From Mustelus asterias (taxonomy: Eukaryota), in NCBI RefSeq assembly GCF_964213995.1, contig NC_135830.1:17050001-17114000 (forward strand): 64,000 bases of DNA. Reading direction: 5' to 3'. Of this stretch, positions 9,177 to 59,674 are shown piece by piece. A program made the position numbers and the translations under genes. The notes below the pieces were generated by a model. It ran no database searches, was not told the origin of the DNA, and saw nothing but the letters and a program-made list of their open reading frames with translations. The stretch's first letter is position 1; every line of letters starts with the position of its first letter.

Positions 9177-9269
9177 CTACAAACAGAAGCTGTTCTGTTT
9201 CAAATAAAACTGCGGGACTGGGAAGAAAATGATGGGAAGAGATTTTGCAAAGTCCCCTCCCCCACTCCC

Positions 9270-26710: not shown

Positions 26711-26804
26711 TACCAGCAGTTAGGTGCAGTCAACCGGCCTGTCTGCAAGGTTCAACTCTGCTGTGTTGCTGCAGGTTCTCATGGTTAGACTTTCCACCAG
26801 TGTC

Positions 26805-29588: not shown

Positions 29589-29661
29589 TGCTTCTGCCCG
29601 GTTTTGAACCGTGGACCTTTCGCGTGTGAGGCGAACGTGATAACCACTACACTACAGAGAC
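29589..29661 (-). tRNA. tRNA-Val(CAC), best-preserved copy but with stem mismatches (possible pseudogene)
   Basis: Reverse complement GTCTCTGTAGTGTAGTGGTTATCACGTTCGCCTCACACGCGAAAGGTCCACGGTTCAAAACCGGGCAGAAGCA, close to canonical vertebrate tRNA-Val. Confidence 0.85.
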
Positions 29662-34655: not shown

Positions 34656-34694
34656 CACAGTGAATGAGGATCCCGCGGGCTTCGTACAAAAACT
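34656..34694 (+). promoter_or_regulatory. V(D)J recombination signal sequence, 23-bp spacer
   Basis: CACAGTG (34656-34662), 23 nt, ACAAAAACT (34686-34694). Confidence 0.92.
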
Positions 34695-35502
34695 GGCGCA
34701 GGTCCTCAATCAATGGTTCCTTGTCCGCAAAACACCTTGCGTTGAATTTCAGATAAAATGTGCAGATCATGAGCCTGCCAATGCAGCCCCATCTGAGTGG
34801 CTTTCCCTCCTAACGTCAATGATTGTCACTGTTGGGGAAATGTGACATTTGGCGCTCAGATTATTCCTGGATAAATCCAATCATTTCCTGATCCCAATCA
34901 CAAAACCCACAGATGTCCCGGGTGAATAACTTAATAAATCAGTATTTTTAATCTTTCTGTGTCAGATGTTTATCTGTCAGGGAACACCTGTTAAATGTGA
35001 TCTAATATCAAAGGCACACTGAGAGTTGTCACATTTTGAAGTTTCTGGACAGAAATAATGACTGATTGAATCAGTACTTTCCCAGTATAAGAGTAATCCC
35101 AGTGGAAACGCAAGTCAATGTGGACTTGGGTGATTACTTATCCCCGGTATAAATAAAGCAGTGACTACTATTATGTTTATGCAGTGGATGCACTCATTAA
35201 TACCCGCAGAGTAAATGAGTGTAAATTATTTATTTCACTTTTAACTTTATTTATAAAGAAAGATTTATCTATAAAAAGGGGGACATTGAGTTCGATCGAA
35301 AGAGGGTGAACCGAGAAAGAGACAGTGTAACTGATAACGTTATTCACCTTTCATGGAAAGAGAAGGAGAGTGAGACCTCTTTTTAGGTCAAACCAAGTAA
35401 ACAAACTCAAATTAAATCAGGACAAAGTAAAAGGGGCAGCTCCCCAAAAAGGAGGGGGAACAGCCCGAACAGAAATCAAAATGCAAAGGAAACTTAAAAA
35501 CA

Positions 35503-38500
35503 TCAAATTAAAATGTGATTATTAGGGTCAATAATGCACCCCAACCCCTGCGGTGCCCAGCGGGCGCGGAAAGCGTCAACCTCGCCCGTGGACACCGCAT
35601 GCTCCCTCTCCAGGGACACCTGGCCGCGAACGTAGCCGCGGTAGAGGGGAAGACAGTCAGGATGGACGGCCCCCTCGATCGCCCGCTGCCTGGACCGGTA
35701 AATGGCGCGTTTCGCCAGGCCCAGGAGCAGGTTCACGAGGAGGTCGCCATCCCGACCCTCCCCTCTCCGCACCGGGTGTCCGTAGATCAGGAGCGTGGGA
35801 CTGAAGTGCAAACAAAACATCAATAAAAGGTTCTTCAGGAAAACATTAAGGGAGTGCAGCCTAAGCCACTCAACATAGACATGGTCCACGGACTCCACAA
35901 GGCCACAGAAAGGGCAGTCTTCGGAGCCCGTGAACCAGTGAATCCTACGGTTGTGCGGAACTGCTGCATGCATCACCCTCCACCCCAGGTCCCCGACGTA
36001 ATTGGGGGAGATCCCTCCGTAGAGGGACCTCCAGCGGGGACCTCCGCCGCCCGGCGGCAACAAGGCCCGCCAAGGTGTATCCGGGCGACAGGCGAGGAGG
36101 CGGTAGTGGAAGGTGTGCAGCAGCAGCCCGCACAGGAAACGCCTCCGCGCGGTAGAAAAAGGCACGGAGGGCATTTCCGCGAGGCGGCTCAGGCTGTGGG
36201 GCACCTCACCCAGGGGAGGGGGCTGAGGCTTTGGGCCAATGTGGAATTCCGCCCGAACAGGGGAACGCTCGGGCGGGATCCCACCGCACGCCTGCGCCGT
36301 CTCAAGTTTGCGTGCAGTTTCGGGGCCGAGCACGACCGTCCTAAGGTCTAGGATGGCTTTGGCCGCGCGCCGGACGGACGTCCCCACGCGCTCAGCCAGC
36401 ACGCGGGGACTCATCCAGCCCGCTCCTCCGCCATCGAGCACGTCCCCGATTCTGGTCACCCCGGCGTCCACAGCCCCCCTCTCCGCCAGCCACCTGAAGT
36501 TATACGGCTGGAGGAGCGGATTCCTGAGCAGCGGCTCTCGCACGAGAGCCGCTACTCCTGACGGGGGAGAGCTGCGTCGCGAGGCGACCTTGTTCCAGAC
36601 AGTGAGGAGGTCCTGGTAAAAGACGGGCAACTCCTGCAGGGTGGTCGAAGCACGCCCCAGTTCGATATGCAGGAGCTGCACGTCATAATTGAGGCCGTGC
36701 CACTGGCGGAAGAAATACGTCGCCATGGCACACCACTGTGGAGGGGGCTCAACGTAAAGGTACCTCTGCAGGGCCTGGAGGCGGAAGGTCGCTATCTGAG
36801 TGCGGAGGCACACCAGACCTTGTCCGCCCTCCTCAAGCGGGAGATACAGGACCGCAGCAGGGACCCAGTGCAGTCGATTGCCCCAGAAGAACCGCTCGAG
36901 GGTTTTCTGGATATCGGTGACAAAGCCAGGGGGAGGGGTCAAAGGGACCAGCCGGTACCACAGCATGGAGGCGACCAGCTGGTTTATGACGCGAGCTCGC
37001 GCCCCGTAGGACAGCACTCGGAGCAGTCCTGTCCAGCGACTCAGGCGGGCGGAGACTTTGGCCTCCAGCTCCCGCCAGTTCGCCGGCCAGGATTCCTCGG
37101 CTGGGCAGAGATGGGCCCCCAAGTAGAGGAGGTCGGTCCTGCTCCAGGTGAAAGGCCTGAGCTCCTCCGGGAGGGGGTCCGTCTCCCAAGGACCGACAAG
37201 GAGTCCGGAGCACTTGGCCCAGTTGATCCTGGCGGAGGACGCGGCGGAGTACACCGCCTGGCATTCTCGCATCCTCCGCAGGTCAGCCGGGTCCGTGAAC
37301 ATGAGGAGCACGTCGTCGGCGTAAGCTGACAGGACCACCCCTACGTCCGGTCCGCGCAGGACCAAACCTGACAACCTCCTCCGCAAGAGGCGCAGGAATG
37401 GCTCCACGCATACGGAATACAGTTGGCCGGACAAGGGGCAGCCCTGCCGTACTCCTCTCCCGAAGCGAAGGGGCGCCGTCAGGGACCCGTTAACCTTAAT
37501 CAGACACTCTGCGGCAGAGTACAGTAATCGGATCCGGGCGACAAAATGCGTCCCGAACCCGAATGCCCGCAGAGTCCCGAGTAAATACTCGTGCTCCACC
37601 CTGTCGAACGCCTTCTCCTGATCTAATGACAAGAAGGCGCCCGACAGACCAGCCCTCTGGGTGTGATGGATTAGGTCCCGGACCAGGTGGAGATTGTCAT
37701 GTATGCAACGGCCCGGGACCGTGTAGGACTGGTCAGGGTGGATCAAGTGGTCCAGCACGGATCCAAGGCGTGAAGCCATAGCCCTGGCAAAGATTTTATA
37801 ATCCGTGCTGAGGAGGGAGACCGGGCGCCAGTTCTTGAGCAGGTGGAGATCCCCCTTCTTGGGCAGCAGGGCAATGACGGCCCTGCGCCACGAAAGGGGC
37901 ATCTCCCCGGTAGCGACGCTCTCCCCCAGGACCCCCGCGTAGTCGCTCCCCAGGACGTCCCAGAACGCCCTGAAGAACTCTACTGTCAGCCCGTCCAGCC
38001 CAGGGGCCTTGCCCCGGCTGAGGCCATTTAGGGCGCCGGTCAGCTCGGCCATGGTGGTAGGGGCCTCGAGCCTGCCGACGCCCTCCGGGCTGACCTGCGG
38101 CAGGTCCTCCCACAGAAGTCTGCGGGCATCCTCGCTGGACGGATCCGGAGAGAAGAGCGAGGTGTAATACTCCCGGGCAATGGCCCGGATGCCCTCCGGA
38201 TCCGAGACGGGGGAACCGTCGTCGGCCAGCAGCGTAAGGAGCTGCTGACGGTTAGCCCGCCCTCTTTCCAGCGAGTAGAAGAAGGGGGAGCCGCGGTCCA
38301 GGTCCACCTGGAACTGGAGCCGCGACCTCACGTACGCGCCGCGAGACCTGGCAAGCTGCAGGTCCCGCAGCGCGTCCTTCTTCTCCCTGTACTCCGAACG
38401 CAGGGCCGGGTCCGCGTCAGGCCGACTGAGACGTGCCTCCAGGTCGAGCACCTCCTTCTCCAACTCCTCGAGCCTGGATTTCCGCCTCTTTGTCGACCCC

Positions 38501-39396
38501 CTCGCGTACCCCTGACAGAAGGTACGGACGTGAGTCTTGCCCACATCCCACCAGAGCCTCAAGGAGGGGAAGCCTCCCCGCTTCCTTCTCCAGCCGGCCC
38601 AGAATCGACGGAACGAGTCCAGGAAGCGCTCGTCCTCCAGCAGCGTGTTGTTAAAGTGCCAGTACGCGGACCCCCGCCGGATGCGAGACGGCGCAAAGTC
38701 CGCCCACACCAGGCTGTGGTCCGTGCTCGACACCAGCCGCATGGAGACCGAGGACACGCCGGACACGTGCGCCTTCGAAATGTAAAGGCGGTCGAGCCTG
38801 GACGCTCCGACTCCAGGCCTCACGAAAGTGAAGGCGCTGGAGCCAGGATGGAGATGTCTCCAGACGTCCACCAAGTCGTGAGACCCGATCAGGTCCCGCA
38901 ACTTCACCACCGCCGGAGTGCGCAGCCAGGGGCCGGTGCGGTCCCGTGCCTCGAGGATGCAGTTGAAATCTCCCCCGAGGATAATGCATTCGCCCCCCGC
39001 GATGGTGTCGATGTGAGCGGACACTTTCTCGTAGAAAGTCGTTTGCTGCGGTCCAGCGGTCGGGGCGTAGACATTCAGCAAGTGAATGACCACGCCCCCC
39101 TCACGGACCGTCAAGTGCAGCAACCGGCCTGGCACCGGCTCCTTGACCCCCAAGATCTCCGGCTTATAACGCGGGGCCAACAAGATAGCCACCCCGCAAG
39201 AAGCGAGCGTGAGGTGGCTCATGTAGACCCCCCCTCGCCACTCCAGGAGCCATTGGGCTTCGTCTCCCGGAACGGTGTGGGTTTCCTGCAGGAAACACAC
39301 CGCATACTTCCCGTCACGGAGGACCGAGAAGTTCTGGAACCTGCGGTGTGGCCCACTGCTGCCGTTGATGTTGAGGCTGGCTATGGTCACCTTCAT
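35503..39396 (-). CDS. Tx1 ORF2: APE endonuclease, reverse transcriptase and C-terminal zinc-binding region (1297 aa)
   Basis: SLNING, LQETH, GGDFN, SRLDRLY, TDHSLV, APGLDGL, NWRPVSLL, DQEKAFD, GVRQGCPLS, YADD, CPFCG..ESVDH. Confidence 0.95.
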   Translation of the reverse strand: MKVTIASLNINGSSGPHRRFQNFSVLRDGKYAVCFLQETHTVPGDEAQWLLEWRGGVYMSHLTLASCGVAILLAPRYKPEILGVKEPVPGRLLHLTVREGGVVIHLLNVYAPTAGPQQTTFYEKVSAHIDTIAGGECIILGGDFNCILEARDRTGPWLRTPAVVKLRDLIGSHDLVDVWRHLHPGSSAFTFVRPGVGASRLDRLYISKAHVSGVSSVSMRLVSSTDHSLVWADFAPSRIRRGSAYWHFNNTLLEDERFLDSFRRFWAGWRRKRGGFPSLRLWWDVGKTHVRTFCQGYARGSTKRRKSRLEELEKEVLDLEARLSRPDADPALRSEYREKKDALRDLQLARSRGAYVRSRLQFQVDLDRGSPFFYSLERGRANRQQLLTLLADDGSPVSDPEGIRAIAREYYTSLFSPDPSSEDARRLLWEDLPQVSPEGVGRLEAPTTMAELTGALNGLSRGKAPGLDGLTVEFFRAFWDVLGSDYAGVLGESVATGEMPLSWRRAVIALLPKKGDLHLLKNWRPVSLLSTDYKIFARAMASRLGSVLDHLIHPDQSYTVPGRCIHDNLHLVRDLIHHTQRAGLSGAFLSLDQEKAFDRVEHEYLLGTLRAFGFGTHFVARIRLLYSAAECLIKVNGSLTAPLRFGRGVRQGCPLSGQLYSVCVEPFLRLLRRRLSGLVLRGPDVGVVLSAYADDVLLMFTDPADLRRMRECQAVYSAASSARINWAKCSGLLVGPWETDPLPEELRPFTWSRTDLLYLGAHLCPAEESWPANWRELEAKVSARLSRWTGLLRVLSYGARARVINQLVASMLWYRLVPLTPPPGFVTDIQKTLERFFWGNRLHWVPAAVLYLPLEEGGQGLVCLRTQIATFRLQALQRYLYVEPPPQWCAMATYFFRQWHGLNYDVQLLHIELGRASTTLQELPVFYQDLLTVWNKVASRRSSPPSGVAALVREPLLRNPLLQPYNFRWLAERGAVDAGVTRIGDVLDGGGAGWMSPRVLAERVGTSVRRAAKAILDLRTVVLGPETARKLETAQACGGIPPERSPVRAEFHIGPKPQPPPLGEVPHSLSRLAEMPSVPFSTARRRFLCGLLLHTFHYRLLACRPDTPWRALLPPGGGGPRWRSLYGGISPNYVGDLGWRVMHAAVPHNRRIHWFTGSEDCPFCGLVESVDHVYVEWLRLHSLNVFLKNLLLMFCLHFSPTLLIYGHPVRRGEGRDGDLLVNLLLGLAKRAIYRSRQRAIEGAVHPDCLPLYRGYVRGQVSLEREHAVSTGEVDAFRARWAPQGLGCIIDPNNHILI

Positions 39397-39424
39397 GTCA
39401 GCAGCTTTGTGCCACCGTCACCAC

Positions 39425-41517
39425 TTAACTAGGTGTGTGGGGGGGCGCTGGCGCAATGCACGCCAGTCCACCCCCCACCTTTTCGAGCCTGTGGAGGAAC
39501 CGCAGTACCCAGCGCCGCTCTATTTTCTCCAGGCCCGCGGAGGCATGCGAGCATGCCTTCACGGACCGGACGAGCCGCGCCAGGTCCGGCCAGTGGCCGA
39601 GGGCTAGCCGGATTATGTCGGAGCGACCGGAATGGTTACGGATAAAGACCCTGAGGTCCTTGGAGGGGATGAGGGACGACTCGGTGGGGGGCACGAGGGA
39701 GTCCCCCGCCTCGCTCTGGGCAGACTCTGAAAGTGTCCCCGTGCCCTCCACCGAGCCGCTGACCTCCTCAGGGCGGTCGCCCCTCGACTCCGAGTCCCCC
39801 GCCGCAGGACGTACGGCGGGCGGCACGGAGCCACCAACTAGCCCTAGCCCCTCCCCGATCCCACCCCCAGGATCGGTGGAGGAGGGGTTCCCCCCGGGCT
39901 CACCTTTCCCGGATTGCGGGCCCCCGTGCGACGGCGGCCCAGCCGCCCCCCCCGCCCCAGACGCTTGGACACCCCCCAGGTCCGGTGTATCCTTCGGACT
40001 GAGGTTGGGGATGTCCAGCGTCCAAGGTCGGGACGGAGAGGACGAGTGGATCGTCTCTTCGCCGCCGCCGCACGAGGACGTGAACATTGGAGTGTCGCCC
40101 CAGTCCCCCGACAGACTGAAGAAGAACTCCGGGTTGTAACCGGCCGGGTGGAACGGAACCGTGGGGGCCCCGCTGCCACCCGGCCCCGGAGACTCCTCGC
40201 CGGGGGACTGAGGCAACACATGCTTCGATTTACAGGGTGCCTTGCCCCCTTTTTTCAGGGGACAAGGCACAAAGACAGGTGGGGGCACGGCAGGAGATGA
40301 CTCACAAGGGGGGAGGGGCACGCAGACCTCGAACTCTACGGTGCCCGAGGGGCCCCGCCTCTTTTTGTTAACCTGCCCTCGGGCAGGCGAGGCCCCTCGC
40401 CCTCCGCCCCTCTTCGCCTTGCCGCGCCCCCCCTGCTCTCCCGTCACTTCCCCCCGAGGTGGCGGCGTCGCCAGTTTTGCCGGCTCGGGGTCGCTTACCC
40501 CCCCATGCTCGGGCCCATGATCCCGGGTGCCGGACCCAGCACTAGGCCCAGGAGAGCCCACGGGCCCGGCAGATGGTGGTGGTGGGGGGGGGCGCAGGTG
40601 GAGACTGAGGCGGTCCCCGAGCCGGCTGCCGGGGTGGTTGGGGTGTCTTTCCTGGGGGCCGGGGTTCCGGTACCCCCCTTCTTTTTCGTGGGTCCCTTCT
40701 GGGCCTTTTGGCCGCGCGGGGGCTCCGCTCCCCCCCCGCCGGCAGCTGAGGTGGCAGCTGCTGCCGGCGTGGCCTCCCCTCGTGGGGGGGCAGATGGTAC
40801 TCGCTTGGGGGGAGAGGGGGCTGCGGTGCCAGCTGCGGCCGCCTTGGGTTGGTGGTCGGCGGCCTTGGAGACAGGGCAGTTTTTCCGCACGTGCCCCGCC
40901 TCCTTACAGGCATGGCACCGCACACCGTCCGCGGACCAAAAGACCCGGTACGTGGTCCCCTCGTGGGGGACATTGAACCCTCCCTCCAGTTCCTCCTCCC
41001 GGGCCAGGCGGACAAAAACCTGGCGCCGGAAGGAGTATATATGGCGGAGGGAGGGGTCCCGAAGGCCGAGCGGGATCGGCTGCACCCCGGACCTGACCTC
41101 CCCCAGTAGATAGAGGTGGGGGAGGAGGAGCTCACTCGGTAGGAAGGGCGGGACGTTCGATATTACTATCTTGTGGGCGGTGGCCTCCAAAGGGTCCACC
41201 GCCAGGAACGTCCCGCCCACCGTGAGCCCCTTTTCCAGGGCGAGGCGAACCGCCCGCTCGGCCTTCAGGAAGAATACGGCCCGGCCGTACATCTTTGAGG
41301 CCGCGACAATGGCTGAGGGGCCGACAACCCCAGCCATTGCCTTGACGCAGGCCTCAATAGACATGTCGGGGTGGGCGTAGCACTTCACCCCGAGCTGCCG
41401 CGTGATTAGGGAGAATGGTGGCAGGGCCTTGGGAGCGGCGGGGGCTCTGGCAGCCGCCACGCCCGCATAGGTGGGCCGAGAAGGCCCTGCCACCGGCGAC
41501 GCTGGTGATGTCGCCAT
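39425..41517 (-). CDS. Tx1 ORF1 (RNA-binding region, CCHC knuckle, long low-complexity tail), split by one frameshift near 40500-40600
   Basis: ORF 40495..41517 (IVAASKMYGRAVFFL, ISNVPPF, CHACKEAGHVRKNC) overlaps ORF 39425..40561. A G homopolymer lies at about 40583-40592. Confidence 0.8.
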
Positions 41518-41914
41518 GGTATCAAGGGAAGTGCTACGCCCATCCCGAGACTGCCCAGACGTACGGCAGGGCGTATGTGGGATGGGGACGATAAGGCAGG
41601 GTGGGGTAGGCGGGGAGGGGTGTAGGTGCTCTCTCCCCGGAGTGAGAGAGGGAGAGAGGAGGTTGGAGGAGCAGGAGGGAGACGAGGCACAAGGCCGGTG
41701 CCCCAGTCAGGAGGGAAAAAGGGGAGGGGGTGCCGGTCCCGGGGGCAGCAGCAGTGGGTAGGGGAATTAGGAAAAGGTCTTCACCCCCCCCACTGCAGAT
41801 GGAAAAGAGACAGTCCAAACGCCTTCGTTCGCCCCCCCCCCCCCCCTTCTCCTCCAGTCACTCCCTGTCCTCTCTTCCTCCCTCCCCCCGGGGAGAGCGC
41901 ACCCTCCAGAGGCC

Positions 41915-42290
41915 AGATGGCAGGCAAGCAGGCAGTCAGGCAGTCCAGACGGCAGGCAGGCCAGACGGCAAGCAGGCAGGCAGGTAGTCCAGACGGCAGG
42001 CAGGCAGGCAGTCCAGACGGCAGGCAGGCAGGTAGGTAAGCAGGCCAGACGGCAGGCAGGCAGGTAAGCAGGCCAAACGACAGGCAGGCAGGTAAGCAGG
42101 CCAGACGGCAGGCAGGCAGGTAAGCAGGCCAGACGGAAGGCAGGCAGGTAAGCAGGCCAGACGGCAGGCAGGCAGGTAAGCAGGCCAGACGGCAGGCAGG
42201 CAGGTAAGCAGGCCAGACGGCAGGCAGGCAGGTAAGCAGGCCAGACGGCAGGCAGGCAGGCAACAGGCAGGCCGGGCAAGGCAGGCAGCA
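41915..42290. repeat. 28-bp tandem repeat (GGCAGGCAGGCAGGTAAGCAGGCCAGAC)n in the Tx1 5'UTR
   Basis: GTAAG recurs with 28-bp period from about 42036 to 42232. Confidence 0.9.
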
Positions 42291-42479
42291 GCTCACCTCC
42301 CTCCTTCCTCCCCGCAGGGAGCCAAGAACAAACAAACAAAACAAAAACAAACAGAACCGGGCGTCTTCTTAAACAAACCCACCCCGGAAACAAAGTGCAG
42401 GCGCTGCCCCAGGGGAGGCACGTTTCAGGCCGTCTGAAGCTCAATTCTCACTCAGACCGAGAGCAGCAGCAGCTTTGCT

Positions 42480-42895
42480 GGGCAGGAATGAGCAGCTGAA
42501 CAAGCTCATTGTCCACTTCCGCATTCATACAATGGGGGAGCTCTGATTGGCTGGAGGACCAAAGAACTTCTGGTCCTCCAGAGTTTCCATTGGTCAATCC
42601 CCCGCTGACAGACAATGAGGGGCGGAGCCCCACGTGGGGGTGGGCGGGACTTTGTGCTCAAGCCGCGCTGAGCTGTTGTCCAATGGGAAAGGCTGGAAGA
42701 TCCGGACAGACAATGGTGAGTGCGCCGGCTTTGTCCCGGGCCCCGCCCCACATCCGCACATGCGCATTCCCCCCAAAATACGCACATGCGCACCTTTGAT
42801 TCAGGGCCCCTTCCTAGCTCTGGCCAATAGGAAGAGTTGGAGGACCGGAAGGACTCTGGTCCTCCCGCCATTGAGAGCGCGGGCCTTGTGTGAAT
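42480..42895. promoter_or_regulatory. CpG-island promoter, probably bidirectional
   Basis: Several CCAAT/ATTGG boxes, GC boxes, two GCACATGCGCA (NRF1-like), ACTTCCG (ETS) and two GGAGGACC...GGTCCTCC palindromes. Same architecture as 63400-63860. Confidence 0.75.
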
Positions 42896-42950
42896 GAAGA
42901 TGGAGTTTCAGAGAGAGTCAAAGTTTCTCCTGTCGTCCACATCTGTGAGT
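42890..42950 (+). other. Inferred first exon and 5' splice donor (CCACATCT|GTGAGT) of the ZNF gene at 53.4 kb
   Basis: Follows the promoter. The sequence resuming at 50543 is homologous to that after ACATCT at 9687-9810, upstream of the paralogous ZNF. Confidence 0.6.
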
Positions 42951-45900
42951 GGGAAAGATTGGACTGTCCAGCCAGTCCACCATATTGGCCGTTCGCTTTG
43001 CGTGTTGGCCAGTATAGTGTGCTCCAGGCAGGGGGCGGGCAGAGGATAAGGAGTTCAAGGCGGGCTTAATGCGCGCCTTGCGGTGAGCTTTTGGAAATGT
43101 GGCCGCTGGGAGGAACGCCTTGGTCGGCGTGAAGTTTCTGTTTCAAGTGCTTGGGTTCGTGACTTGTGCAAGAACTTTTTGTTTCGGCTGGGGCTTGTTG
43201 AATGCTGCTCTCGCTGGGATTCCTGTGCCTTGAAAGGCGTGGCCCGGGTGGATGCAATCTCGGAAGACCCAAGCCAGGGAGGAGCCATTTGGGAACTATG
43301 GTTTCGGAAGGTTCAGCCGCGGAAGGTGTGACCCCAGACGGTGCAGCCCCAGTGGGTGTGATTTTGGAAGTTCTGGCCCGGAGTGGTGGACTTTGGAGGA
43401 CTGTAGTTGAGCGTTGTCGACTTCGGACGGTGGAATGTTGATGGGCGAAGCTCTGGAAGGCGATGCCTCCGAAATGTTTCACAATTGTTCATGGATTGTT
43501 TGTTATTGTAATATGTGGTTTTCCTGTTATGATAGTTGGTGGTTTGTTCCGGCCCCCGTCTATTTTCTTGCGTTATTTGTGGCCTGGGGGGCATCCCCCC
43601 CTGGATAGAGTCACCCCCGGGGGGTGTGACATCCACTTGGGGAAAGTTCTGGGTGGTGAAGCCCCGGACATAGTAACACCAGAGGGATTTTTATTCTCCG
43701 GGAGAAAAATTGGGAAGGCAGGCCCGAACTGAGTACCCTGGAGAGACTCTCCCACCGCCCCGGCTGAAATTCCGGAAGGCAGTCCGGATTGAGTAGGCGG
43801 GGTGGTTTCCCCATTTCCCCCCTCTGGCTGAACATCCGTAAGGTGTAACCCCCGGATATGAGTACCACTGGAGGGTTGCATCCCCCGGCAGGTGGACAAA
43901 CCCAGGGGACGGTGCCCTTATGCTTCAGTGTTTATTTTTTTGTTGTGTACAGTTGTAGTGTTGTTAATGTTTGTAGATTTGTAGATTATGATTTGTAAAT
44001 GGAGGTGTATTTTGAGGGCAATGCCCTGGAAAACTGTAATTGACGATGAACCCTTCCGAAATGGAAGGTAGTAATTGATAAATGGATGGTGTTAGCCATC
44101 GGTAATGTATTTTTCATGAATTGTTTGTTATTGTAATATGTGGTTTTCCTGTTATGATAGTTGGTGGTTTGTTCCGGCCCCCGTCTATTTTCTTGCGTTA
44201 TTTGTGGCCTGGGGGGCATCCCCCCCTGGATAAAGTCACCCCCGGGGGGTGTGACATCCACTTGGGGAAAGTTCTGGGTGGTGAAGCCCCGGTCATAGTA
44301 ACACCAGAGGGATTTTTATTCTCCGGGAGAAAAATTGGGAAGGCAGGCCCGAACTGAGTACCCTGGAGAGACTCTCCCACCGCCCCGGCTGAAATTCCGG
44401 AAGGGATTCCGGATTGAGTAGGCGGGGTGGTTTCCCCCATTTCCCCCCTCCGGCTGAACATCCGTAAGGTGTAACCCCCGGATATGAGTACCACTGGAGG
44501 GTTGCATCCCCCGGCAGGTGGACAAACCCAGGGGACGGTGCCCTTATGCTTCAGTGTTTATTTTTTGTGTACAGTTGTAGTGTGTTAATGTTTGTAGATT
44601 TGTAGATTATGATTTGTAAATGGAGGTGTATTTTGAGGGCAATGCCCTGGAAAACTGTAATTGACGATGAACCCTTCCGAAATGGAAGGTAGTAACTGAT
44701 AAATGGATGGCGTTAGCCATTGGTAATGTATTTTTTTCACATTTGTTCTTTGTGTATTTGTAATTGTTTTGTATTAACGTATTTGTAATAAACAAAAAGA
44801 AATCCACATCTGTGAGTGGGAAAGATTGGACTGTCCAGCCAGTCCACCATATTGGCCGTTCGCTTTGCGTGTTGGCCAGTATAGTGTGCTCCAGGCAGGG
44901 GGCGGGCAGAGGATAAGGAGTTCAAGGCGGGCTTAATGCGCGCCTTGCGGTGAGCTTTTGGAAATGTGGCCGCTGGGAGGAACGCCTTGGTCGGCGTGAA
45001 GTTTCTGTTTCAAGTGCTTGGGTTCGTGACTTGTGCAAGAACTTTTTGTTTCGGCTGGGGCTTGTTGAATGCTGCTCTCGCTGGGATTCCTGTGCCTTGA
45101 AAGGCGTGGCCCGGGTGGATGCAATCTCGGAAGACCCAAGCCAGGGAGGAGCCATTTGGGAACTATGGTTTCGGAAGGTTCAGCCGCGGAAGGTGTGACC
45201 CCAGACGGTGCAGCCCCAGTGGGTGTGATTTTGGAAGTTCTGGCCCGGAGTGGTGGACTTTGGAGGACTGTAGTTGAGCGTTGTCGACTTCGGACGGTGG
45301 AATGTTGATGGGCGAAGCTCTGGAAGGCGATGCCTCCGAAATGTTTCACAATTGTATGGTTGTTCATGGATTGTTTGTTATTGTAATATGTGGTTTTCCT
45401 GTTATGATAGTTGGTGGTTCCGGCCCCCGTCTATTTTCTTGCGTTATTGTGGCCTGGGGGGCATCCCCCCCTGGATGGAGTCACCCCCGGGGGGTGTGAC
45501 ATCCACTTGGGAAAATGCTCTGGGTGGTGAAGCCCCGGACATAGTAACACCAGAGGGATTTTTATTCTCCGGGAGAAAAATTGGGAAGGCAGGCCCGAAC
45601 TGAGTACCCTGGAGAGACTCTCCCACCGCCCCGGCTGAAATTCCGGAAGGCAGTCCGGATTGAGTAGGCGGGGTGGTTTCCCCATTTCCCCCCTCCGGCT
45701 GAACATCCGTAAGGTGTAACCCCCGGATATGAGTACCACTGGAGGGTTGCATCCCCCGGCAGGTGGACAAACCCAGGGGACGGTGCCCTTATGCTTCAGT
45801 GTTTATTTTTTTGTTGTGTACAGTTGTAGTGTTGTTAATGTTTGTAGATTTGTAGATTATGATTTGTAAATGGAGGTGTATTTTGAGGGCAATGCCCTGG

Positions 45901-48900
45901 AAAACTGTAATTGACGATGAACCCTTCCGAAATGGAAGGTAGTAATTGATAAATGGATGGTGTCAGCCATCGGTAATGTATTTTTCATGGATTGTTTGTT
46001 ATTGTAATATGTGGTTTTCCTGTTATGATAGTTGGTGGTTTGTTCCGGCCCCCGTCTATTTTTTTGCGTTATTTGTGGCCTGGGGGGCATCCCCCCCTGG
46101 AAAAAGTCACCCCCGGGGGGTGTGACATCCACTTGGGGAAAGTTCTGGGTGGTGAAGCCCCGGACATAGTAACACCAGAGGGATTTTTATTCTCCGGGAG
46201 AAAAATTGGGAAGGCAGGCCCGAACTGAGTACCCTGGAGAGACTCTCCCACCGCCCCGGCTGAAATTCCGGAAGGAATTCCGGATTGAGTAGGCGGGGTG
46301 GTTTCCCCCATTTCCCCCCTCCGGCTGAACATCCGTAAGGTGTAACCCCCGGATATGAGTACCACTGGAGGGTTGCATCCCCCGGCAGGTGGACAAACCC
46401 AGGGGACGGTGCCCTTATGCTTCAGTGTTTATTTTTTTGTTGTGTACAGTTGTAGTGTTGTTAATGTTTGTAGATTTGTAGATTATGATTTGTAAATGGA
46501 GGTGTATTTTGAGGGCAATGCCCTGGAAAACTGTAATTGACGATGAACCCTTCCGAAATGGAAGGTAGTAACTGATAAATGGATGGCGTTAGCCATTGGT
46601 AATGTATTTTTTTTCACATTTGTTCTTTGTGTATTTGTAATTGTTTTGTATTAACGTATTTGTAATAAACAAAAAGAAAGCCAAAAAAAAAAAAAAAAAA
46701 AGATGGAGTTTCAGAGAGAGTCAAAGTTTCTCCTGTCGTCCACATCTGTGAGTGGGAAAGATTGGATTGTCCAGCCAGTCCGCCATATTGGCCGTTCGCT
46801 TTGCGTGTTGGCCAGTATAGTGTGCTCCAGGCAGGGGGCGGGCAGAGGATAAGGAGTTCAAGGCGGGCTTAATGCGCGCCTTGCGGTGAGCTTTTGGAAA
46901 TGTGGCCGCTGGGAGGAACGCCTTGGTCGGCGTGAAGTTTCTGTTTCAAGTGCTTGGGTTCGTGACTTGTGCAAGAACTTTTTGTTTCGGCTGGGGCTTG
47001 TTGAATGCTGCTCTCGCTGGGATTCCTGTGCCTTGAAAGGTGTGGCCCGGGTGGATGCAGTCTCGGAAGACCCAAGCCAGGGAGGAGCCATTTTGGAACT
47101 ATGGTTTCGGAAGGTTCAGCCGCGGAAGGTGTGACCCCAGACGGTGCAGCCCCAGTGGGTGTGATTTTGGAAGATCTGGCCCGGAGTGGTGGACTTTGGA
47201 GGACTGTAGTTGAGCGTTGTCGACTTCGGACGGTGGAATGTTGATGGGCGAAGCTCTGGAAGGCGATGCCTCCGAAATGTTTCACAATTGTATGGTTGTT
47301 CATGGATTGTTTGTTATTGTAATATGTGGTTTTCCTGTTATGATAGTTGGTGGTTTGTTCCGGCCCCCGTCTATTTTCTTGCGTTATTTGTGGCCTGGGG
47401 GGCATCCCCCCCTGGATGGAGTCACCCCCGGGGGGTGTGACATCCACTTGGGGAAAGTTCTGGGTGGTGAAGCCCCGGACATAGTAACACCAGAGGGATT
47501 TTTATTCTCCGGGAGAAAAATTGGGAAGGCAGGCCCGAACTGAGTACCCTGGAGAGACTCTCCCACCGCCCCGGCTGAAATTCCGGAAGGCAGTCCGGAT
47601 TGAGTAGGTGGGGTGGTTTCCCCCATTTCCCCCCTCCGGCTGAACATCCGTAAGGTGTAACCCCCGGATATGAGTACCACTGGAGGGTTGCATCCCCCGG
47701 CAGGTGGACAAACCCAGGGGACGGTGCCCTTATGCTTCAGTGTTTATTTTTTTGTTGTGTACAGTTGTAGTGTTGTTAATGTTTGTAGATTTGTAGATTA
47801 TGATTTGTAAATGGAGGTGTATTTTGAGGGCAATGCCCTGGAAAACTGTAATTGACGATGAACCCTTCCGAAATGGAAGGTAGTAATTGATAAATGGATG
47901 GTGTTAGCCATCGGTAATGTATTTTTCATGAATTGTTTGTTATTGTAATATGTGGTTTTCCTGTTATGATAGTTGGTGGTTTGTTCCGGCCCCCGTCTAT
48001 TTTCTTGCGTTATTTGTGGCCTGGGGGGGCATCCCCCCCTGGATAAAGTCACCCCCGGGGGGTGTGACATCCACTTGGGGAAAGTTCTGGGTGGTGAAGC
48101 CCCGGACATAGTAACACCAGAGGGATTTTTATTCTCCGGGAGAAAAATTGGGAAGGCAGGCCCGAACTGAGTACCCTGGAGAGACTCTCCCACCGCCCCG
48201 GCTGAAATTCCGGAAGGGATTCCGGATTGAGTAGGCGGGGTGGTTTCCCCCATTTCCCCCCTCCGACTGAACATCCGTAAGGTGTAACCCCCGGATATGA
48301 GTACCACTGGAGGGTTGCATCCCCCGGCAGGTGGACAAACCCAGGGGACGGTGCCCTTATGCTTCAGTGTTTATTTTTTGTTGTGTACAGTTGTAGTGTT
48401 GTGTTCATGTTTGTAGATTTGTAGATTATAATTTGTAAATAGAGGTGTATTTTGAGGGCAGGGCCCTGGAAAACTGTAATTGACGATGAACCCTTCCGAA
48501 ATGGAAGGTAGTAACTGATAAATGGATGGCGTTAGCCATTGGTAATGTATTTTTTTCACATTTGTTCTTTGTGTATTTGTAATTGTTTTGTATTAACGTA
48601 TTTGTAATAAACAAAAAGAAAGCCACATCTGTGAGTGGGAAAGATTGGATTGTCCAGCCAGTCCACCATATTGGCCGTTCGCTTTGCGTGTTGGCCAGTA
48701 TAGTGTGCTCCAGGCAGGGGGCGGGCAGAGGATAAGGAGTTCAAGGCGGGCTTAATGCGCGCCTTGCGGTGAGCTTTTGGAAATGTGGCCGCTGGGAGGA
48801 ACGCCTTGGTCGGCGTGAAGTTTCTGTTTCAAGTGCTTGGGTTCGTGACTTGTGCAAGAACTTTTTGTTTCGGCTGGGGCTTGTTGAATGCTGCTCTCGC

Positions 48901-50500
48901 TGGGATTCCTGTGCCTTGAAAGGCGTGGCCCGGGTGGATGCAATCTCGGAAGACCCAAGCCAGGGAGGAGCCATTTGGGAACTATGGTTTCGGAAGGTTC
49001 AGCCGCGGAAGGTGTGACCCCAGACGGTGCAGCCCCAGTGGGTGTGATTTTGGAAGTTCTGGCCCGGAGTGGTGGACTTTGGAGGACTGTAGTTGAGCGT
49101 TGTCGACTTCGGACGGTGGAATGTTGATGGGCGAAGCTCTGGAAGGCGATGCCTCCGAAATGTTTCACAATTGTATGGTTGTTCATGGATTGTTTGTTAT
49201 TGTAATATGTGGTTTTCCTGTTATGATAGTTGGTGGTTCCGGCCCCCGTCTATTTTCTTGCGTTATTGTGGCCTGGGGGGCATCCCCCCCTGGATAAAGT
49301 CACCCCCGGGGGGTGTGACATCCACTTGGGGAAAGTTCTGGGTGGTGAAGCCCCGGACATAGTAACACCAGAGGGATTTTTATTCTCCGGGAGAAAGATT
49401 GGGAAGGCAGGCCCGAACTGAGTACCCTGGAGAGACTCTCCCACCGCCCCGGCTGAAATTCCGGAAGGCAGTCCGGATTGAGTAGGCGGGGTGGTTTCCC
49501 CATTTCCCCCCTCCGGCTGAACATCCGTAAGGTGTAACCCCCGGATATGAGTACCACTGGAGGGTTGCATCCCCCGGCAGGTGGACAAACCCAGGGGACG
49601 GTGCCCTTATGCTTCAGTGTTTATTTTTTTGTTGTGTACAGTTGTAGTGTTGTTAATGTTTGTAGATTTGTAGATTATGATTTGTAAATGGAGGTGTATT
49701 TTGAGGGCAATGCCCTGGAAAACTGTAATTGACGATGAACCCTTCCGAAATGGAAGGTAGTAATTGATAAATGGATGGTGTTAGCCATCGGTAATGTATT
49801 TTTCATGGATTGTTTGTTATTGTAATATGTGGTTTTCCTGTTATGACAGTTGGTGGTTTGTTCCGGCCCCCGTCTATTTTTTTGCGTTATTTGTGGCCTG
49901 GGGGGCATCCCCCCCTGGAAAAAGTCACCCCCGGGGGGTGTGACATCCACTTGGGGAAAGTTCTGGGTGGTGAAGCCCCGGACATAGTAACACCAGAGGG
50001 ATTTTTATTCTCCGGGAGAAAAATTGGGAAGGCAGGCCCGAACTGAGTACCCTGGAGAGACTCTCCCACCGCCCCGGCTGAAATTCCGGAAGGGATTCCG
50101 GATTGAGTAGGCGGGGTGGTTTCCCCCATTTCCCCCCTCCGGCTGAACATCCGTAAGGTGTAACCCCCGGATATGAGTACCACTGGAGGGTTGCATCCCC
50201 CGGCAGGTGGACAAACCCAGGGGACGGTGCCCTTATGCTTCAGTGTTTATTTTTTGTTGTGTACAGTTGTAGTGTTGTGTTAATGTTTGTAGATTTGTAG
50301 ATTATGATTTGTAAATGGAGGTGTATTTTGAGGGCAATGCCCTGGAAAACTGTAATTGACGATGAACCCTTCCGAAATGGAAGGTAGTAACTGATAAATG
50401 GATGGCGTTAGCCATTGGTAATGTATTTTTTTCACATTTGTTCTTTGTGTATTTGTAATTGTTTTGTATTAACGTATTTGTAATAAACAAAAAGAAAGCC
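42951..50500 (+). mobile_element. Four tandem copies of a ~1.85-kb non-autonomous retroelement: 42951-44802, 44818-46701, 46754-48622, 48637-50498
   Basis: Each unit is a ~535-bp head, two ~625-bp internal repeats and an AT-rich tail ending AATAAACAAAAAGAAA(GCC). Units are separated by copies of CCACATCTGTGAGT. Unit 2 has a poly(A) tail. Confidence 0.8.
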
Positions 50501-50512
50501 ACATCTGTGAGT

Positions 50513-50530
50513 TTGACCTAAAAGAGGCCA
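50513..50530 (+). mobile_element. 18-bp stub of the Tx1 3' terminus
   Basis: TTGACCTAAAAGAGGCCA matches the Tx1 end TTTGACCTAAAAAGAGG. Flanked by ACATCTGTGAGT at 50501-50512 and 50531-50542. Confidence 0.75.
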
Positions 50531-51711
50531 ACATCTGTGAGTTTCTTTTCTCAATCTGGGGGAAATTGGGGACTTGCAGCAACTGAAGGGAAAGGAAGTG
50601 AATCCAGGGAGGGTGCAAACTCTGGAAAGGTTGGCCCAGGACTCTCTCTCTCTCTTAAAGACATTGATATCGAAACATCGAAGGAACTCCATCAGGAACA
50701 TCCTCCCTGCATCTATCCTGCCTCGACCAGTTAGAATTTTATCAGTCTCTTTGAGATTCCCCCCTCATTCATCTGAACTCCAATGAAAACAATCCTAACC
50801 TAGTCAATCTCTCCTCCTACATCAGTCCCGCGATTCCCTGAATCAGCCTGGTAAACATCCTTTGCTCCCTCAGCTTGACACATTTATTTGTCTGTCGAAA
50901 AGGATGGTTATTTTCCTCATGTTCACATTAAAGGGCAGCTTTCCCCAGGAGATGGCTGACATTTAAGCGTACAGTAACTTAATATAGGACAGAGATATGT
51001 CTAGTGTTATTCTATGTACCCAGATTAGATACATTCTTTATGCTTCTGTAATAAAATACATTTATTATTATTTCTTGCATTGTAGTATAATGCTGTAGCG
51101 ATGTTATACACTTCCAGTCATAAAGTCATTACAGCACAGAAGGAATCCATTTGGTAACTTGATTTCATGCTGACTCTCTGTATAACATTCCAGTCCCATT
51201 CCCACTCGATATCCCCATTCTCCTGAAAGGTTATTTCCTTCAACTGCCTATCCACTTTCATTTGTAAATAGAATCCATAGATATGGATGGAGATTTACAA
51301 CTTTTTGGGAATGAAATAGGAAAGAATGTTCCAGAGAAACTAGAATTGTCTGCTCTGAATTTCGATCCTATACTGACTGTGATGACTTTTGCAAGCTCAT
51401 TTCACAGGATTTTGAACGAGGAATCACAGGCAAAACTCTCAACCGTCACATCTAGAAAGAGTCATATTCCTTGGAATCTGAATATCTTGTAATGTGGAAC
51501 TGTAGCTACGTTATATATTTCCAGACGTCTCTTCCCTCAGAGGGTTGTTAGTCTTTTGGATTTCTCTTCTACAGGGACCAGTGGAGGCTGAGGATCATTG
51601 AATATATTCCAGTTAGACAGATCTTTGACTGACAAGGGTGTCAAGGGTTATAGGGAACAGACAAGAAGATGGAGCAAAAGCTAAGATGTGAGGGGATTTC
51701 TTCACTCAAGG

Positions 51712-52410
51712 ATAGAACATAGAACATAGAACAGTACAGCACAGAACAGGCCCTTCGGCCCACGATGTTGTGCCGACCTTCATCTGAAACCAAGATCAAG
51801 CTATCCCACTCCCTACCATCCTGGTGTGCTCCATGTGCCTATCCAATAACCGCTTAAATGTTCCTAAAGTGTCTGACTCCACTATCACTGCAGGCAGTCC
51901 ATTCCACACCCCAACCACTCTCTGCGTGAAGAACCTACCTCTGATATCCTTCCTATATCTCCCACCATGAACCCTATAGTTATGCCCCCTTGTAATAGCT
52001 CCATCCACCCGAGGAAATAGTCTTTGAACGTTCACTCGATCTATCCCCTTCATCATTTTATAAACCTCTATTAAGTCTCCCCTCAATCTCCTCCGCTCCA
52101 GAGAGAACAGCCCCAGCTCCCTCAACCTTTCCTCATAAGACCGACACTCCAAACCAGGCAGCATCCTGGTAAATCTCCTCTGCACTCTTTCCAGCGCTTC
52201 CACATCCTTCTTATAGTGAGGTGACCAGAACTGCACGCAATATTCCAAATGCGGTCTCACCAAGGTCCTGTACAGTTGCAGCATAACCCCACGGCTCTTA
52301 AACTCCAACCCCCTGTTAATAAAAGCTAACACACTATATGCCTTCTTCACAGCTCTATCCACTTGAGTGGCAACCTTTAGAGATCTGTGGATATGGACCC
52401 CAAGATCACC
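51712..52410 (-). mobile_element. CR1 LINE 3' fragment
   Basis: ORF 51796..52413 is the RT C-terminus; (ATAGAAC)n tail. Confidence 0.9.
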
Positions 52411-52411
52411 C

Positions 52412-52609
52412 AAGAGGAATCACAGGCCGAAATCTCAAACGTCACGTCGAGATCTGACATAGTCATATTCCTTGGGAGCTGAATATCATCGTCCTTTGAA
52501 TCTAGAAAGAGAAATTGTTGTCCAGTCTGTTGATTTGAAAAGATTTCAAACATCAGTGTGACTGGAAAAGCACCAACACACTGCCACACTCGAGTGAGGG
52601 TGTTCCAGT
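52412..52609 (+). repeat. 198-bp direct duplication of 53081-53278
   Basis: The two stretches read identical by eye. Confidence 0.9.
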
Positions 52610-53423
52610 AAAGCTTTGGAATTCTCAACCCCCGAGGACAGTGAAGCCTCAGTCATCAACTATTTTCAAGAGAGAGATTGATTGGTTTCTAGATGTTGAA
52701 AATATCAAGGGATATGGGTTTAGTGTGGGGAGAATGATGCTGAGGTAGATGAACGAATTATCTCATTGAATAGTTTAAAAGGCTCGATGAGCCAAATGGC
52801 CGACTGCAACTCCTCGTTGTCATGGTCTCTGTGTCCAGGACAGGAAGCAGTGAGCATGGATCTGTCAATCAGCCTCAATCAGCACCTTCAGGAGAATTGG
52901 GAGGGTGAATATTAGATACAGCAGAGTTTGAATGGAGGGAGAGTGTGTGGGATGGAGATTTACAGCTTTTGAGGAATGGGAGAGGAAAGAATGTTCCATA
53001 GAAACTAGAATTGTCTTTTCTGAATTTCTATCCTGTCCTGACAATGATGACTTTTGTAAACTTGTTTTACAGGATATTGAAAGAGGAATCACAGGCCGAA
53101 ATCTCAAACGTCACGTCGAGATCTGACATAGTCATATTCCTTGGGAGCTGAATATCATCGTCCTTTGAATCTAGAAAGAGAAATTGTTGTCCAGTCTGTT
53201 GATTTGAAAAGATTTCAAACATCAGTGTGACTGGAAAAGCACCAACACACTGCCACACTCGAGTGAGGGTGTTCCAGTGCACGGACTAAAGAGCTTTAAC
53301 CAGTTACACAGCCTGAATAACTATCACACCATTCACAGCAGGGAGAGACTGTACCCGTGTTCTGTGTGTGGACGAGGCTTCAACTGATTGTCCACCCAAG
53401 AGAGAGGCAAGGACACCTGCACC

Positions 53424-54182
53424 ATGGAGAAACCATGGAAATGTGCGGACTGTGGGAAGAGATACAGATACCCAACTGAGCTGGAAGCTCATCGGCGCAG
53501 CCACACTGGGGAGAGACCATTCACGTGCTCTCAGTGTGGGAAGGGATTCACTCAGTCATTCAACCTGCAGAGACACCAGCGAGCTCACACTGGGGAGAGG
53601 CCGTTCACCTGCTCTCAGTGTGGGGAGGGATTCACTTCTTCATCCTACCTGCGGAGGCACCAGCGAGTTCACACTGGGGAGAGGCCGTTCACCTGCTCTC
53701 AGTGTGGGGAGGGATTCACTTCTTCATCCTACCTGCGGAGGCACCAGCGAGTTCACACTGGGGAGAGGCCGTTCACCTGCTCTCAGTGTGGGAAGGGATT
53801 CACTCGGTCATCCAGCCTGCGGACACACGAGCGAGTTCATACTGGGGAGAGGCCGTTCACGTGTTCTCAGTGTGGGGAGGGATTCACTCGGTCATCCAGC
53901 CTGCGGGCACACGAGCGAGTTCACACTGGGGAGAGGCCATTCACCTGCTCTCAGTGTGGGAAGGGATTCTGTGATTCATCCCGCCTGCTGAGACACCAGC
54001 AAGTTCACACTGGGGAGAGGCCGTTCACCTGCTCTCAATGTGAGAAGAGATTCACTCGATTATCCAGCCTGCTGAGACACCAGCGAGTTCACACTGGAGA
54101 GAAGCCGTTCACCTGCTCTGTGTGTGAGAAGAGATTCAGTCTTTCATCCAGCCTGCTGAGACACCAACGAGTTCACGAATGA
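53424..54182 (+). CDS. C2H2 zinc-finger protein, 9 fingers (MEKPWKC start), no KRAB domain seen
   Basis: ORF 53388..54182 with first ATG at 53424 and TGERP linkers. Acceptor TTTTACAG at about 53072. Confidence 0.8.
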
Positions 54183-54269
54183 TTCCAGGGGTTGGATTCT
54201 GCTGTTACTGTTTCTGCTCTCAATTACATCCAGGACTGCATTTTGTTCATTCTCACAGTTGGTCAATGG

Positions 54270-54680
54270 GGAGAATGCTCTGACTGTGGGAAGGGATTCA
54301 CTGATTCATCCGACCTGCTGAAACACCAGAGAATTCATAATAGGGAGAGGCCATTTATCTGCTCCGAGTGTGGGAAGGGATTTACTCAGTCATTCAACCT
54401 GCTAAAACACCAGCCAAGTCACACTGGAGAGAGGCCATTCACTTGCTCCAGTTGTGGGAAGGGATTTATTGATTCATCCAAACTGCTGAGACACCAGCGA
54501 GTTCATGCTGGGGAGAGACCAGTCACCTCCTCTGATTGTGGCAAGGGATTCAGTCAATCATCCAACCTGGTAAAGCACCAGCGAATTCACACTGGGGACA
54601 GGCCATTCACCTGCTCCGTGTGTGGGAAGGGATTCACTCAGTCACCTCACCTGCTGAAACACCATCATGTTCACGAGTGA
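54270..54680 (+). pseudogene. Additional five-finger array downstream of the stop codon
   Basis: C-terminal part of ORF 54192..54680; one finger has lost a Cys (VTSSDC). Confidence 0.65.
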
Positions 54681-58209: not shown

Positions 58210-59674
58210 CATAGAGGAGGAAGTGCTTTCCCTCCTCCAATCAGCTTGGCCTCTGCACAGTAGCACGCTGCAATTTTTTCCCATTTAAATAATAGTCCAT
58301 TTTGCTGTTATTCCTACCAAAATGGATGACCTCACATTTACCAACATTGTACTCCATCTGCCAGACCCTCGCCCACTCACTTAGATTATCTATATCCCTT
58401 TGCAGACTTTCAGCATCCTCTGCACACTTTGCTCTTAGTGTCATCTGCGAATTTTGACACACTACACTTGGTCCCCAACTCCAAATCATCTATGTAAATC
58501 GTAAACAATTGCGGTCCCAACACTGATCCCTGAGGCACACCACTAGTCACTGATCGCCAACCAGAAAAACACCCATTTACCCCCACTCTTTGCTTTCTGT
58601 TAGTTAACCAATCCTCTATCCATGCTAATACATTATCCGTAACACTGTGCACCTTTATCTTATGTAGCAGTCTTTGGTGCGGCACCTTGTCAAATGCCTT
58701 CTGGAAATCCAGATACACCACATCCACAGGTTCCCCATTGTCCACTGCACATGTAATGTTCTCAAATAATTCCACCAAATTAGTCAAACATGACCTGCCC
58801 TTCATGAACCTATGCTGTGTCTTACCAATGGGACAATTTATATCCAGATGTCTCGCTATTTCTTCCCTGATGATAGATCCAAGCATTTTCCCTCCTCCAG
58901 AAGTTAAGCGAACCAGCCTATAGTTACCTGCCTTTTGTCTACCTCCTTTTTTAAATGTTTGCGATTTTGTGAAACCTGTTTTTGTTGTCTGAGCTGACTG
59001 GAATTAGAGCCAGAGCAGGAGTAATCCAGGGGAATGATTTGGAGATAAAGGAAAATCCAGCAGATGCTGGAATTCTGAATAAAACAGACTTGCTGAGTTT
59101 ATCCAGCATTTTCTCTATTTATTATAATGATTTTGGGACCTGGGTTTGAATCCCACCACGTTTCAACAAAAATATTGATGAGCATGAATTAATTGTTGTA
59201 AAAACACATCTGGTTCTCTAATTCCCTTCAAGGAAGGAAATCTGCCGCCCTGATCCAGTCTAACCGACATGTGACTGGATTCACAAACAATTCAAGGGCT
59301 GACTGGGTAAACAGGGAATGTCACCATCAGAAAAACAGAGCCCCCTGGAGGGCAGAAGTGTTAGGACAGGTTACGGAGAGGTTAAAACTGTCATTGAGAA
59401 CAACACAGACTTTAACGGAACAACTGGTCCCAAAAACAATCTGTTGTAGTTAGTGTGGCAGGGTGTGGTGAATCAGGTTTAAAAAGAGTCAAATTATATA
59501 TGTTTTCTAGTTTGGACAACCACATTTAAATCTGGGACTCGGATGAGGATATGAATTGGTGTTTGGTGGTAAGATCTAAATCTGTGTATTACGCCGTGAA
59601 GCCTTAAACCCAGAGTGAGAATATTTCAAACCAGGGTTCAAAATGAACGGCTGTGGATGGTGAATTCACTCTCA

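Follow-up and report, generated by a model that had tools for sequence, protein, structure and literature searches.

How did four almost identical copies of a non-coding sequence come to lie head to tail in what appears to be the 5' region of a zinc-finger gene? The question is raised by positions 42,951 to 50,500 of a 64,000-nucleotide stretch of the Mustelus asterias genome (NCBI RefSeq assembly GCF_964213995.1, contig NC_135830.1, forward-strand positions 17,050,001 to 17,114,000), which is referred to below as the window and in whose coordinates all positions are given. The array is real and retrotransposed, and its unit, here called the passenger, is neither a short interspersed element (SINE) nor a SINEU, nor is it a long terminal repeat (LTR) element or a plain satellite. 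Our preferred explanation, to which we assign a probability of roughly 0.6, is that at this one locus a non-coding RNA polymerase II (Pol II) transcript was inserted repeatedly at a preferred site through target-primed retrotransposition by the ORF2 protein of a Tx1-clade element.

The repeated unit and its junctions

The four copies measure 1,852–1,868 bp and diverge from one another by 0.5–1.1% (9–20 substitutions per pair over about 1,850 columns). All of them start with GGGAAAGATTGGA and end in AATAAACAAAAAGAAA, and each is composed of a head of 545–553 bp, two internal repeats (repeats R1 and R2 in Table 1) with a period of 620–626 bp, and a tail of 67–68 bp. These coordinates and shared ends bear out the unit given in a preliminary description made from the sequence alone, that is a head, two 625-bp repeats and an A-rich tail, together about 1.85 kb, arrayed four times with a common start base. 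Five positions separate repeat R1 from repeat R2 consistently in every copy; the internal duplication is therefore older than the array, and it was the whole unit that was copied. The head is CpG-rich (observed/expected 0.82 over the first 260 nucleotides) and contains two CCAAT boxes and one GC box, as examined in copy 3, while its second half (47030–47260 and the equivalents in every copy) displays a degenerate periodicity of about 15 nucleotides. Runs of four or more T are present from element position 139 onward, which argues against transcription by RNA polymerase III (Pol III). The sole plus-strand AATAAA of the element, again as examined in copy 3, sits in the tail; AATAAA and an A-run mark the 3' end of all four copies, one of which ends in a true poly(A) tail of 19 residues. 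The GC-rich core of the repeat holds degenerate sub-repeats of 60–65 nucleotides plus short hairpins. Folding of copy 4 in 30 sliding segments of 120 nucleotides indicated that this core is no more structured than shuffled sequences and that the 3' part of each repeat alone reaches z-scores of −2.3 to −2.9.

Table 1. Features of the array, its flanks and the neighbouring Tx1 element (window coordinates)
Feature	Positions	Strand	Remarks
Near-complete Tx1-clade retrotransposon	35377..42454	−	ORF2 35503-39417 intact (endonuclease + reverse transcriptase); 5' end uncertain
Host promoter region, probably bidirectional	42450..42896	.	CCAAT, GC-box and NRF1-like motifs suggest promoter function
Native target, 54 nt	42897..42950	+	AAGATGG (probable transcription start) to donor-like GTGAGT
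Copy 1	42951..44802	+	head 42951-43495, R1 43496-44114, R2 44121-44735, tail to 44802
Target duplication, 15 bp	44803..44817	+	
Copy 2	44818..46679	+	
GCC + 19-nt A-run, copied poly(A) tail	46680..46701	+	A-run 46683-46701
Target duplication, 54 bp	46700..46753	+	exact copy of 42897-42950
Copy 3	46754..48621	+	terminal G at 48622; most diverged, 12 private substitutions
Target duplication, 14 bp	48623..48636	+	
Copy 4	48637..50497	+	terminal G to 50498
Target duplication, 14 bp	50499..50512	+	
Severely 5'-truncated Tx1 3' stub	50513..50530	+	17/18 identical to Tx1 terminus 35394-35376; microhomology at 5' junction
Target duplication after stub, 12 bp	50531..50542	+	14 bp allowing one extra A
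Right flank, conserved zinc-finger-gene 5' region	50543..51226	+	93% identical to 9722-9813 (92 bp), 67% identical to 9880-10233 (383 bp)
Probable host gene coding exon	53065..54612	+	acceptor-like site 53065, ATG 53424, 13 C2H2 motifs 53442-54612

The five junctions, one behind each passenger copy and a fifth behind the Tx1 stub at the right end of the array, all hold an exact repeat of native left-flank sequence that terminates at the identical base, after GTGAGT; four of them are 12–15 bp long (cf. Table 1). Target repeats of differing length (15, 54 and 14 bp) had been noted before and were confirmed, with the refinement that the spacers at the "15" and "14" bp junctions are equally long (15 nucleotides) and differ in one base only, T or G. 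The T of the junction between copies 1 and 2 agrees with the native flank, as expected from a nick one base upstream, and this junction is best read as a separate nick. Behind copy 2, the A-run begins 13 nucleotides past AATAAA (46664–46669) and is followed by the 54-bp repeat. GCC plus 19 A residues after AATAAA is the trace expected of a cleaved and polyadenylated Pol II transcript, and at least this junction therefore needs reverse transcription. Furthermore, there are three junction types, all carrying target sequence and one of them poly(A), which is not the uniform head-to-tail arrangement free of target DNA that defines a satellite. Flanking duplications, an A-rich or poly(A) end and the lack of reverse transcriptase (RT) and endonuclease coding are the marks of a non-autonomous non-LTR retroposon. 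The earlier view of the array as a retrotransposed Pol II-type passenger and not a satellite was thus supported by the duplications, by the single AATAAA with the poly(A) junction behind it, by the T-runs and by the promoter-like head. Private non-homopolymer changes number 5, 5, 12 and 3 in copies 1–4, respectively, and the most diverged copy (copy 3) is internal in the array, a position that fits insertions on either side of an older copy. We concluded that three or four insertion events took place, with some conversion among the copies.

The scans for coding capacity and known RNA heads also upheld the statement that the element has no long open reading frame and no tRNA, 5S or 7SL head. 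The longest ATG-initiated frame, with three of the four copies scanned, spans 101 codons on the plus strand and 178 on the minus strand, and none of the three minus-strand frames tested matched Pfam. ARAGORN detected no tRNA in the element and Rfam no family at its gathering score, the region 42400–44900 giving weak matches only (E 0.48–9). The element is consequently without the head of a Pol III SINE (tRNA, 5S or 7SL) and, with no small nuclear RNA match in Rfam, without the U1/U2-derived head of a SINEU. A retrozyme or Penelope-type identity was not indicated either, as no Rfam ribozyme matched and the GC core was unstructured relative to shuffles, a search that divergent ribozymes could escape.

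The target, a candidate Tx1 partner and the proposed route of insertion

Sequence comparison allowed us to add to the preliminary description that the target is the 5' region of a member of a C2H2 zinc-finger gene family. The putative promoter to the left of the array contains a 59-bp inverted repeat (42522–42580 and 42838–42896, 78%) and a core, GGAGGACC, that is repeated at 63502–63531, ahead of another zinc-finger gene; the core 14-bp site (42937–42950) lies 40–54 nucleotides behind one arm of this inverted repeat. GTGAGT corresponds to a consensus intron start and was the only donor-like site listed by the scan along the empty path between 42850 and 51229; its exon side is weak and the GT is missing in one paralogue, so that donor function is no more than probable. 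The stretch homologous to the right flank precedes a zinc-finger exon located at 11.2 kb, and the native target is 78% identical over 36 bp to a paralogous empty site at 9002–9037 (−). That part of the window holds a head-to-head pair of zinc-finger genes with inverted homologous 5' regions (8995–9038 and 9661–9704, 86% over 44 bp) and a 19/37-bp tandem repeat at 9024–9176. We also considered 8995–9704 as a miniature inverted-repeat transposable element and dropped this reading, since both arms continue into zinc-finger exons.

The near-complete retrotransposon on the other side of the promoter points away from the opposite arm of its inverted repeat. Its ORF2 product is 49% identical over the full length to Xenopus Tx1 ORF2 (P0005), 70% to a stingray fragment and 64% to a horn-shark fragment, and it grouped with Xenopus Tx1 and the stingray and horn-shark sequences (support 100/99) in a tree for which 18 rows had been selected out of 120 matches. 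This affinity would by itself suggest a cartilaginous fish as host. With an apurinic-type endonuclease and an RT in ORF2 and a zinc knuckle in ORF1, the element has the makeup of the Tx1 clade, and it is of the Tx1L lineage. ORF1 starts at 41517 and its frame is broken near 40590; it is divided between frames 40495–41517 and 39425–40903 (−) next to a run of ten C at about 40590, possibly a sequencing error. An inverted repeat of 21 bp (41366–41386 and 41527–41547) brackets the ORF1 start codon, and the 5' region further contains a 36-bp inverted repeat (41625–41660 and 41868–41903) and 13 tandem copies of a 28-bp unit (41919–42288). The best candidate for the 5' end is marked by a 5-bp duplication, GGTCT, at 42458–42454, 68 nucleotides from the promoter arm. 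A 5' end at 41647, with an 8-bp duplication, was rejected, because the 36-bp inverted repeat spans that point.

What ties this lineage to the array is the stub. When both strands of the window were searched for the Tx1 terminus, allowing two edits, it was found in two places only, the full-length element and the stub of about 16 nucleotides; the array site was therefore struck both by the passenger and by Tx1 RNA. The earlier proposal that Tx1 ORF2 mobilised the passenger has this stub, at the same site and with a similar duplication, as its one supporting fact.

In the route that we favour, the unit would be a non-autonomous, non-coding non-LTR retroposon, transcribed by Pol II, either under the control of its CpG-rich head or as read-through that begins at the zinc-finger promoter, with the transcript ending at the single AATAAA. 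A Tx1-clade ORF2 protein would capture this RNA and nick the bottom strand directly before CCACATCT, whereupon reverse transcription would be primed at the RNA end (the A-run, the G and possibly a read-through CCA pairing with the target) and the 5' end would be joined about 14 bp downstream, behind GTGAGT. Every insertion would restore the site, so that later copies would stack head to tail; an order consistent with the data would place the stub and copy 3 earliest, followed by copies 4, 2 and 1. For copy 2, a genuine poly(A) tail would have served for priming, some 40 bp upstream of the usual site (TG/AAGA), with the 5' junction unchanged, and this constancy suggests a fixed second nick or a target-bearing RNA leader that anneals there. 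Target sequence in the RNA would account for the fixed 5' junction, even in the 54-bp case, and for the full length of the copies. As a minor possibility, the 54-bp repeat may stem from a template jump that left a promoter co-transcript at its 5' end and landed on a poly(A) tail, which agrees with the junction and conflicts with the divergence of copy 3. The site preference may be one for a CCACATCTGTGAG-type site common to passenger and Tx1 3' ends. Sequence-specific nicking, the identity of the partner, the promoter used, the donor function of GTGAGT and the order of events are what we infer here.

Several observations speak against this route. All four copies are of full length, an unusual outcome when 1.85 kb is inserted by target priming, and no dispersed or 5'-truncated passenger copy was found elsewhere in the window (BLASTN of the element against the rest of it gave no significant match, best E 0.1). 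The 54-bp duplication is unusually long. The paralogous sites at 9001–9014 (−) and 9685–9698 (+), each two mismatches away, are empty, the latter being without the GT. The reconstructed site of the full-length Tx1, a different sequence, agrees with the array site in 8 of 14 bases, and the duplication there is at most 5 bp; as such agreement is reached by 1% of window positions and the comparison was chosen after the fact, we discarded the likeness of the two target sites as evidence. The resemblance between passenger and Tx1 3' ends, to which the preliminary description had appealed, was too short to count: it amounts to an A-run with a few purines, and no real homology was detected by BLASTN. 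Within the array, the surplus of private changes in copy 3 is not significant (chi-square p 0.058), and the informative sites are divided, five grouping copies 1+3 versus 2+4, two grouping 1+2 versus 3+4 and one grouping 1+4 versus 2+3. The neighbouring Tx1 family may not be strictly bound to the 14-bp site, or it may target by promoter proximity, or the true partner may be a relative of it.

Alternative explanations for the element and the array

Of the competing explanations, the one that survives best, although we consider it unlikely, is that the passenger is an internally deleted derivative (a 5' untranslated region plus a duplicated 3' untranslated region) of a different autonomous Tx1/L1 family and was moved by that parent, the neighbouring Tx1 merely sharing the site or having chanced on it. 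The G-rich start, the promoter-like head, the T-rich AATAAA tail and the 3' hairpins (z −2.9) resemble the ends of a long interspersed element (LINE). The neighbouring Tx1 has no sequence in common with the passenger (tblastn of its frames against the element gave nothing significant, best E 0.046), and short internally deleted elements (SIDEs) of the R2 and R2/R1 retrotransposon types are described as a precedent in PMC3414825. Moreover, the core of the repeat and its 5' boundary motif recur outside the window. Of 118 candidates, a minus-strand frame matched one protein, P0121, from a contig of 2,771 nucleotides. This protein corresponds to the GC-rich core read in antisense (66% over 87 residues, tblastn E 3e-33; a further frame gives E 4e-17), and it ends at the 5' boundary motif of the repeat. 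A wider minus-strand search (proteins of 30–659 aa, 5,652 candidates) yielded one match, again P0121, and a 22-nucleotide core pattern, run as a check for a contaminant contig, had no match in bacterial and archaeal genomes. The repeat core thus predates the locus and occurs elsewhere, a finding that also counts in favour of the preferred route. What lowers the standing of a deleted derivative is that no ORF2 remnant was recognised, either with a profile of 15 Tx1 ORF2 proteins (no matches) or among 120 relatives (best E 0.04), and that the plus-strand read-through (960/1,294 common 12-mer frames) matched none of 1.84 billion protein representatives.

Somewhat less probable again is local growth, in which one or two retrotranspositions took place and the array then expanded, either through unequal crossing-over or because a dimer was duplicated (copies 3–4 giving 1–2), so that it would be an incipient satellite. 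Positions 42897–46683 align with 46700–50501 as a single block at 98.8%, the junctions 1/2, 3/4 and 4/stub differ by no more than one base, and the 54-bp repeat begins exactly at the end of the promoter's inverted repeat; arrays can, according to bioRxiv 10.1101/158386, expand from element dimers. The five sites that group 1+3 versus 2+4 also favour dimer duplication, and some local recombination is therefore likely. However, the poly(A) junction requires reverse transcription, the T of junction 1/2 agrees with the target and not with the other junctions, and the dimer grouping is at odds with the three remaining informative sites. Besides, the distance between copies 1 and 3 (16 substitutions and an 8-bp indel) exceeds that from copy 1 to copy 4 (9) or to copy 2 (10). 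In a variant of local growth, a read-through RNA from 42897 that was polyadenylated after the second copy could possibly have yielded the dimer.

It is very improbable that the 625-bp repeats are LTRs (of a terminal-repeat retrotransposon in miniature or a solo-LTR tandem) or Penelope-type pseudo-LTRs. The TTCATG junction does let each repeat be read as TG...CA, but the repeats are internal to the unit and abut with no internal region, they contain no plus-strand AATAAA, no ribozyme family was matched, and no duplication of 4–6 bp surrounds them (GTTCA versus CATTT), the duplications flanking the whole unit instead. An assembly artefact, which the many indels in homopolymers might suggest, is hardly credible in view of 3–12 private non-homopolymer differences per copy and three junction types.

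Precedents, possible significance and other features of the window

Separate insertion of a passenger at one preferred site has counterparts among known systems. Like SINEU-1 to SINEU-3 of crocodilians and Tx1-Mar, as described in PMC4494074, the array consists of a non-coding passenger whose partner is suggested by the target and not by the tail: in that account, a 3' tail shared with the partner LINE was not required, and Tx1-Mar was deduced from the shared target. The same source reports tandem SINEU-3 copies that sandwich a duplication, exclusion of Pol III by T-runs, a proposal of flanking transcription and partial internal duplications, all of which have a counterpart here. SINEUs are, according to it, mostly shorter than 500 bp, with U1/U2 heads and a Mariner transposon as target, whereas the present element is 1.85 kb long, has no small-RNA head and resides in a zinc-finger gene 5' region. 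R1 retrotransposon arrays in Drosophila ribosomal DNA provide another example of site-specific stacked copies, with a 14-bp duplication as spacer, and target sequence at the RNA ends was proposed to anneal and make the junctions precise (PMC2718515). R1 is described there as autonomous and as targeting 28S ribosomal DNA; here the unit is non-coding, the partner would be of the Tx1 clade and the 5' junction is fixed. SVA and Sadhu are listed in PMC4494074 as non-autonomous retroposons that are neither SINEs nor deleted LINEs. By its description in that paper only (about 2 kb, composite, transcribed by Pol II, with one subfamily on a host gene promoter), SVA is similar to the passenger in size and composite build; it is moved by L1, while the mover here would probably be Tx1, and the 625-bp duplication and recurrent insertion at one site set the passenger apart. 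The R2 and R2/R1 SIDEs are likewise non-autonomous and site-specific, with 14-bp duplications in the hybrid class, but their parent ends are recognisable (PMC3414825) and none was recognised here. As for Tx1 itself, the targets that PMC4494074 gives comprise genes for small RNAs, microsatellites, satellites and other transposons, Xenopus Tx1 inserting into the Tx1D DNA transposon, whereas here a zinc-finger gene holds the stub, and its putative promoter adjoins the full-length copy. The behaviour is accordingly already known, and what differs is the passenger, together with a target that belongs to a family of protein-coding genes; the supplementary target list of PMC4494074 may hold similar cases. 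A literature search that was thin on subscription papers and Repbase Reports returned no report of this passenger or of a zinc-finger-targeting Tx1 family.

A broader and decidedly tentative idea, which we hold to be improbable, is that in cartilaginous fish a lineage of Tx1, together with its passenger, specifically targets the conserved first-exon/donor region of the multicopy C2H2 zinc-finger gene family, with the passenger borrowing the host promoter and being guided in integration by target sequence at both RNA ends. Acceptor-like sites are present in the repeats (47762 and 48388), and if the idea were true, these sites, together with the poly(A) signal, could capture the transcript of the zinc-finger gene and so shut down that class of genes, which in zebrafish represses transposons (PMC10547256). 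Protein-coding zinc-finger 5' ends would then form a new target class, possibly reflecting a counter-move against transposon repressors, and a 1.85-kb cargo unlike the partner's tail would imply that a site-specific LINE can recognise RNA in a relaxed manner, a matter that bears on retrotransposon-based gene insertion. Were the array confined to this locus, it would be a modest example of an insertion hot spot turning into a tandem array.

The remaining features of the window are of various kinds. At 34363–34845 (+), set among zinc-finger genes and 0.7 kb from the Tx1 3' end, lies an antigen-receptor V gene segment (V-set E 8e-5) that ends in ...HYCALRP and is followed by a CACAGTG heptamer, a 23-nucleotide spacer and a ACAAAAACT nonamer. 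A piece of the zinc-finger exon start is duplicated, being common to 52414–52487 and the sequence from 53073 onward. Many RT fragments of another LINE type, presumably CR1-like by their motifs, occur at 3091–4128, 5003–5584, 24238–25899, 51796–52419 and 58410–59003. Two tRNA-Val genes are located at 26637–26711 (−) and 29588–29661 (−), with anticodons AAC and CAC, respectively, and a 47-bp minisatellite of about 13 copies occupies 17657–18244.

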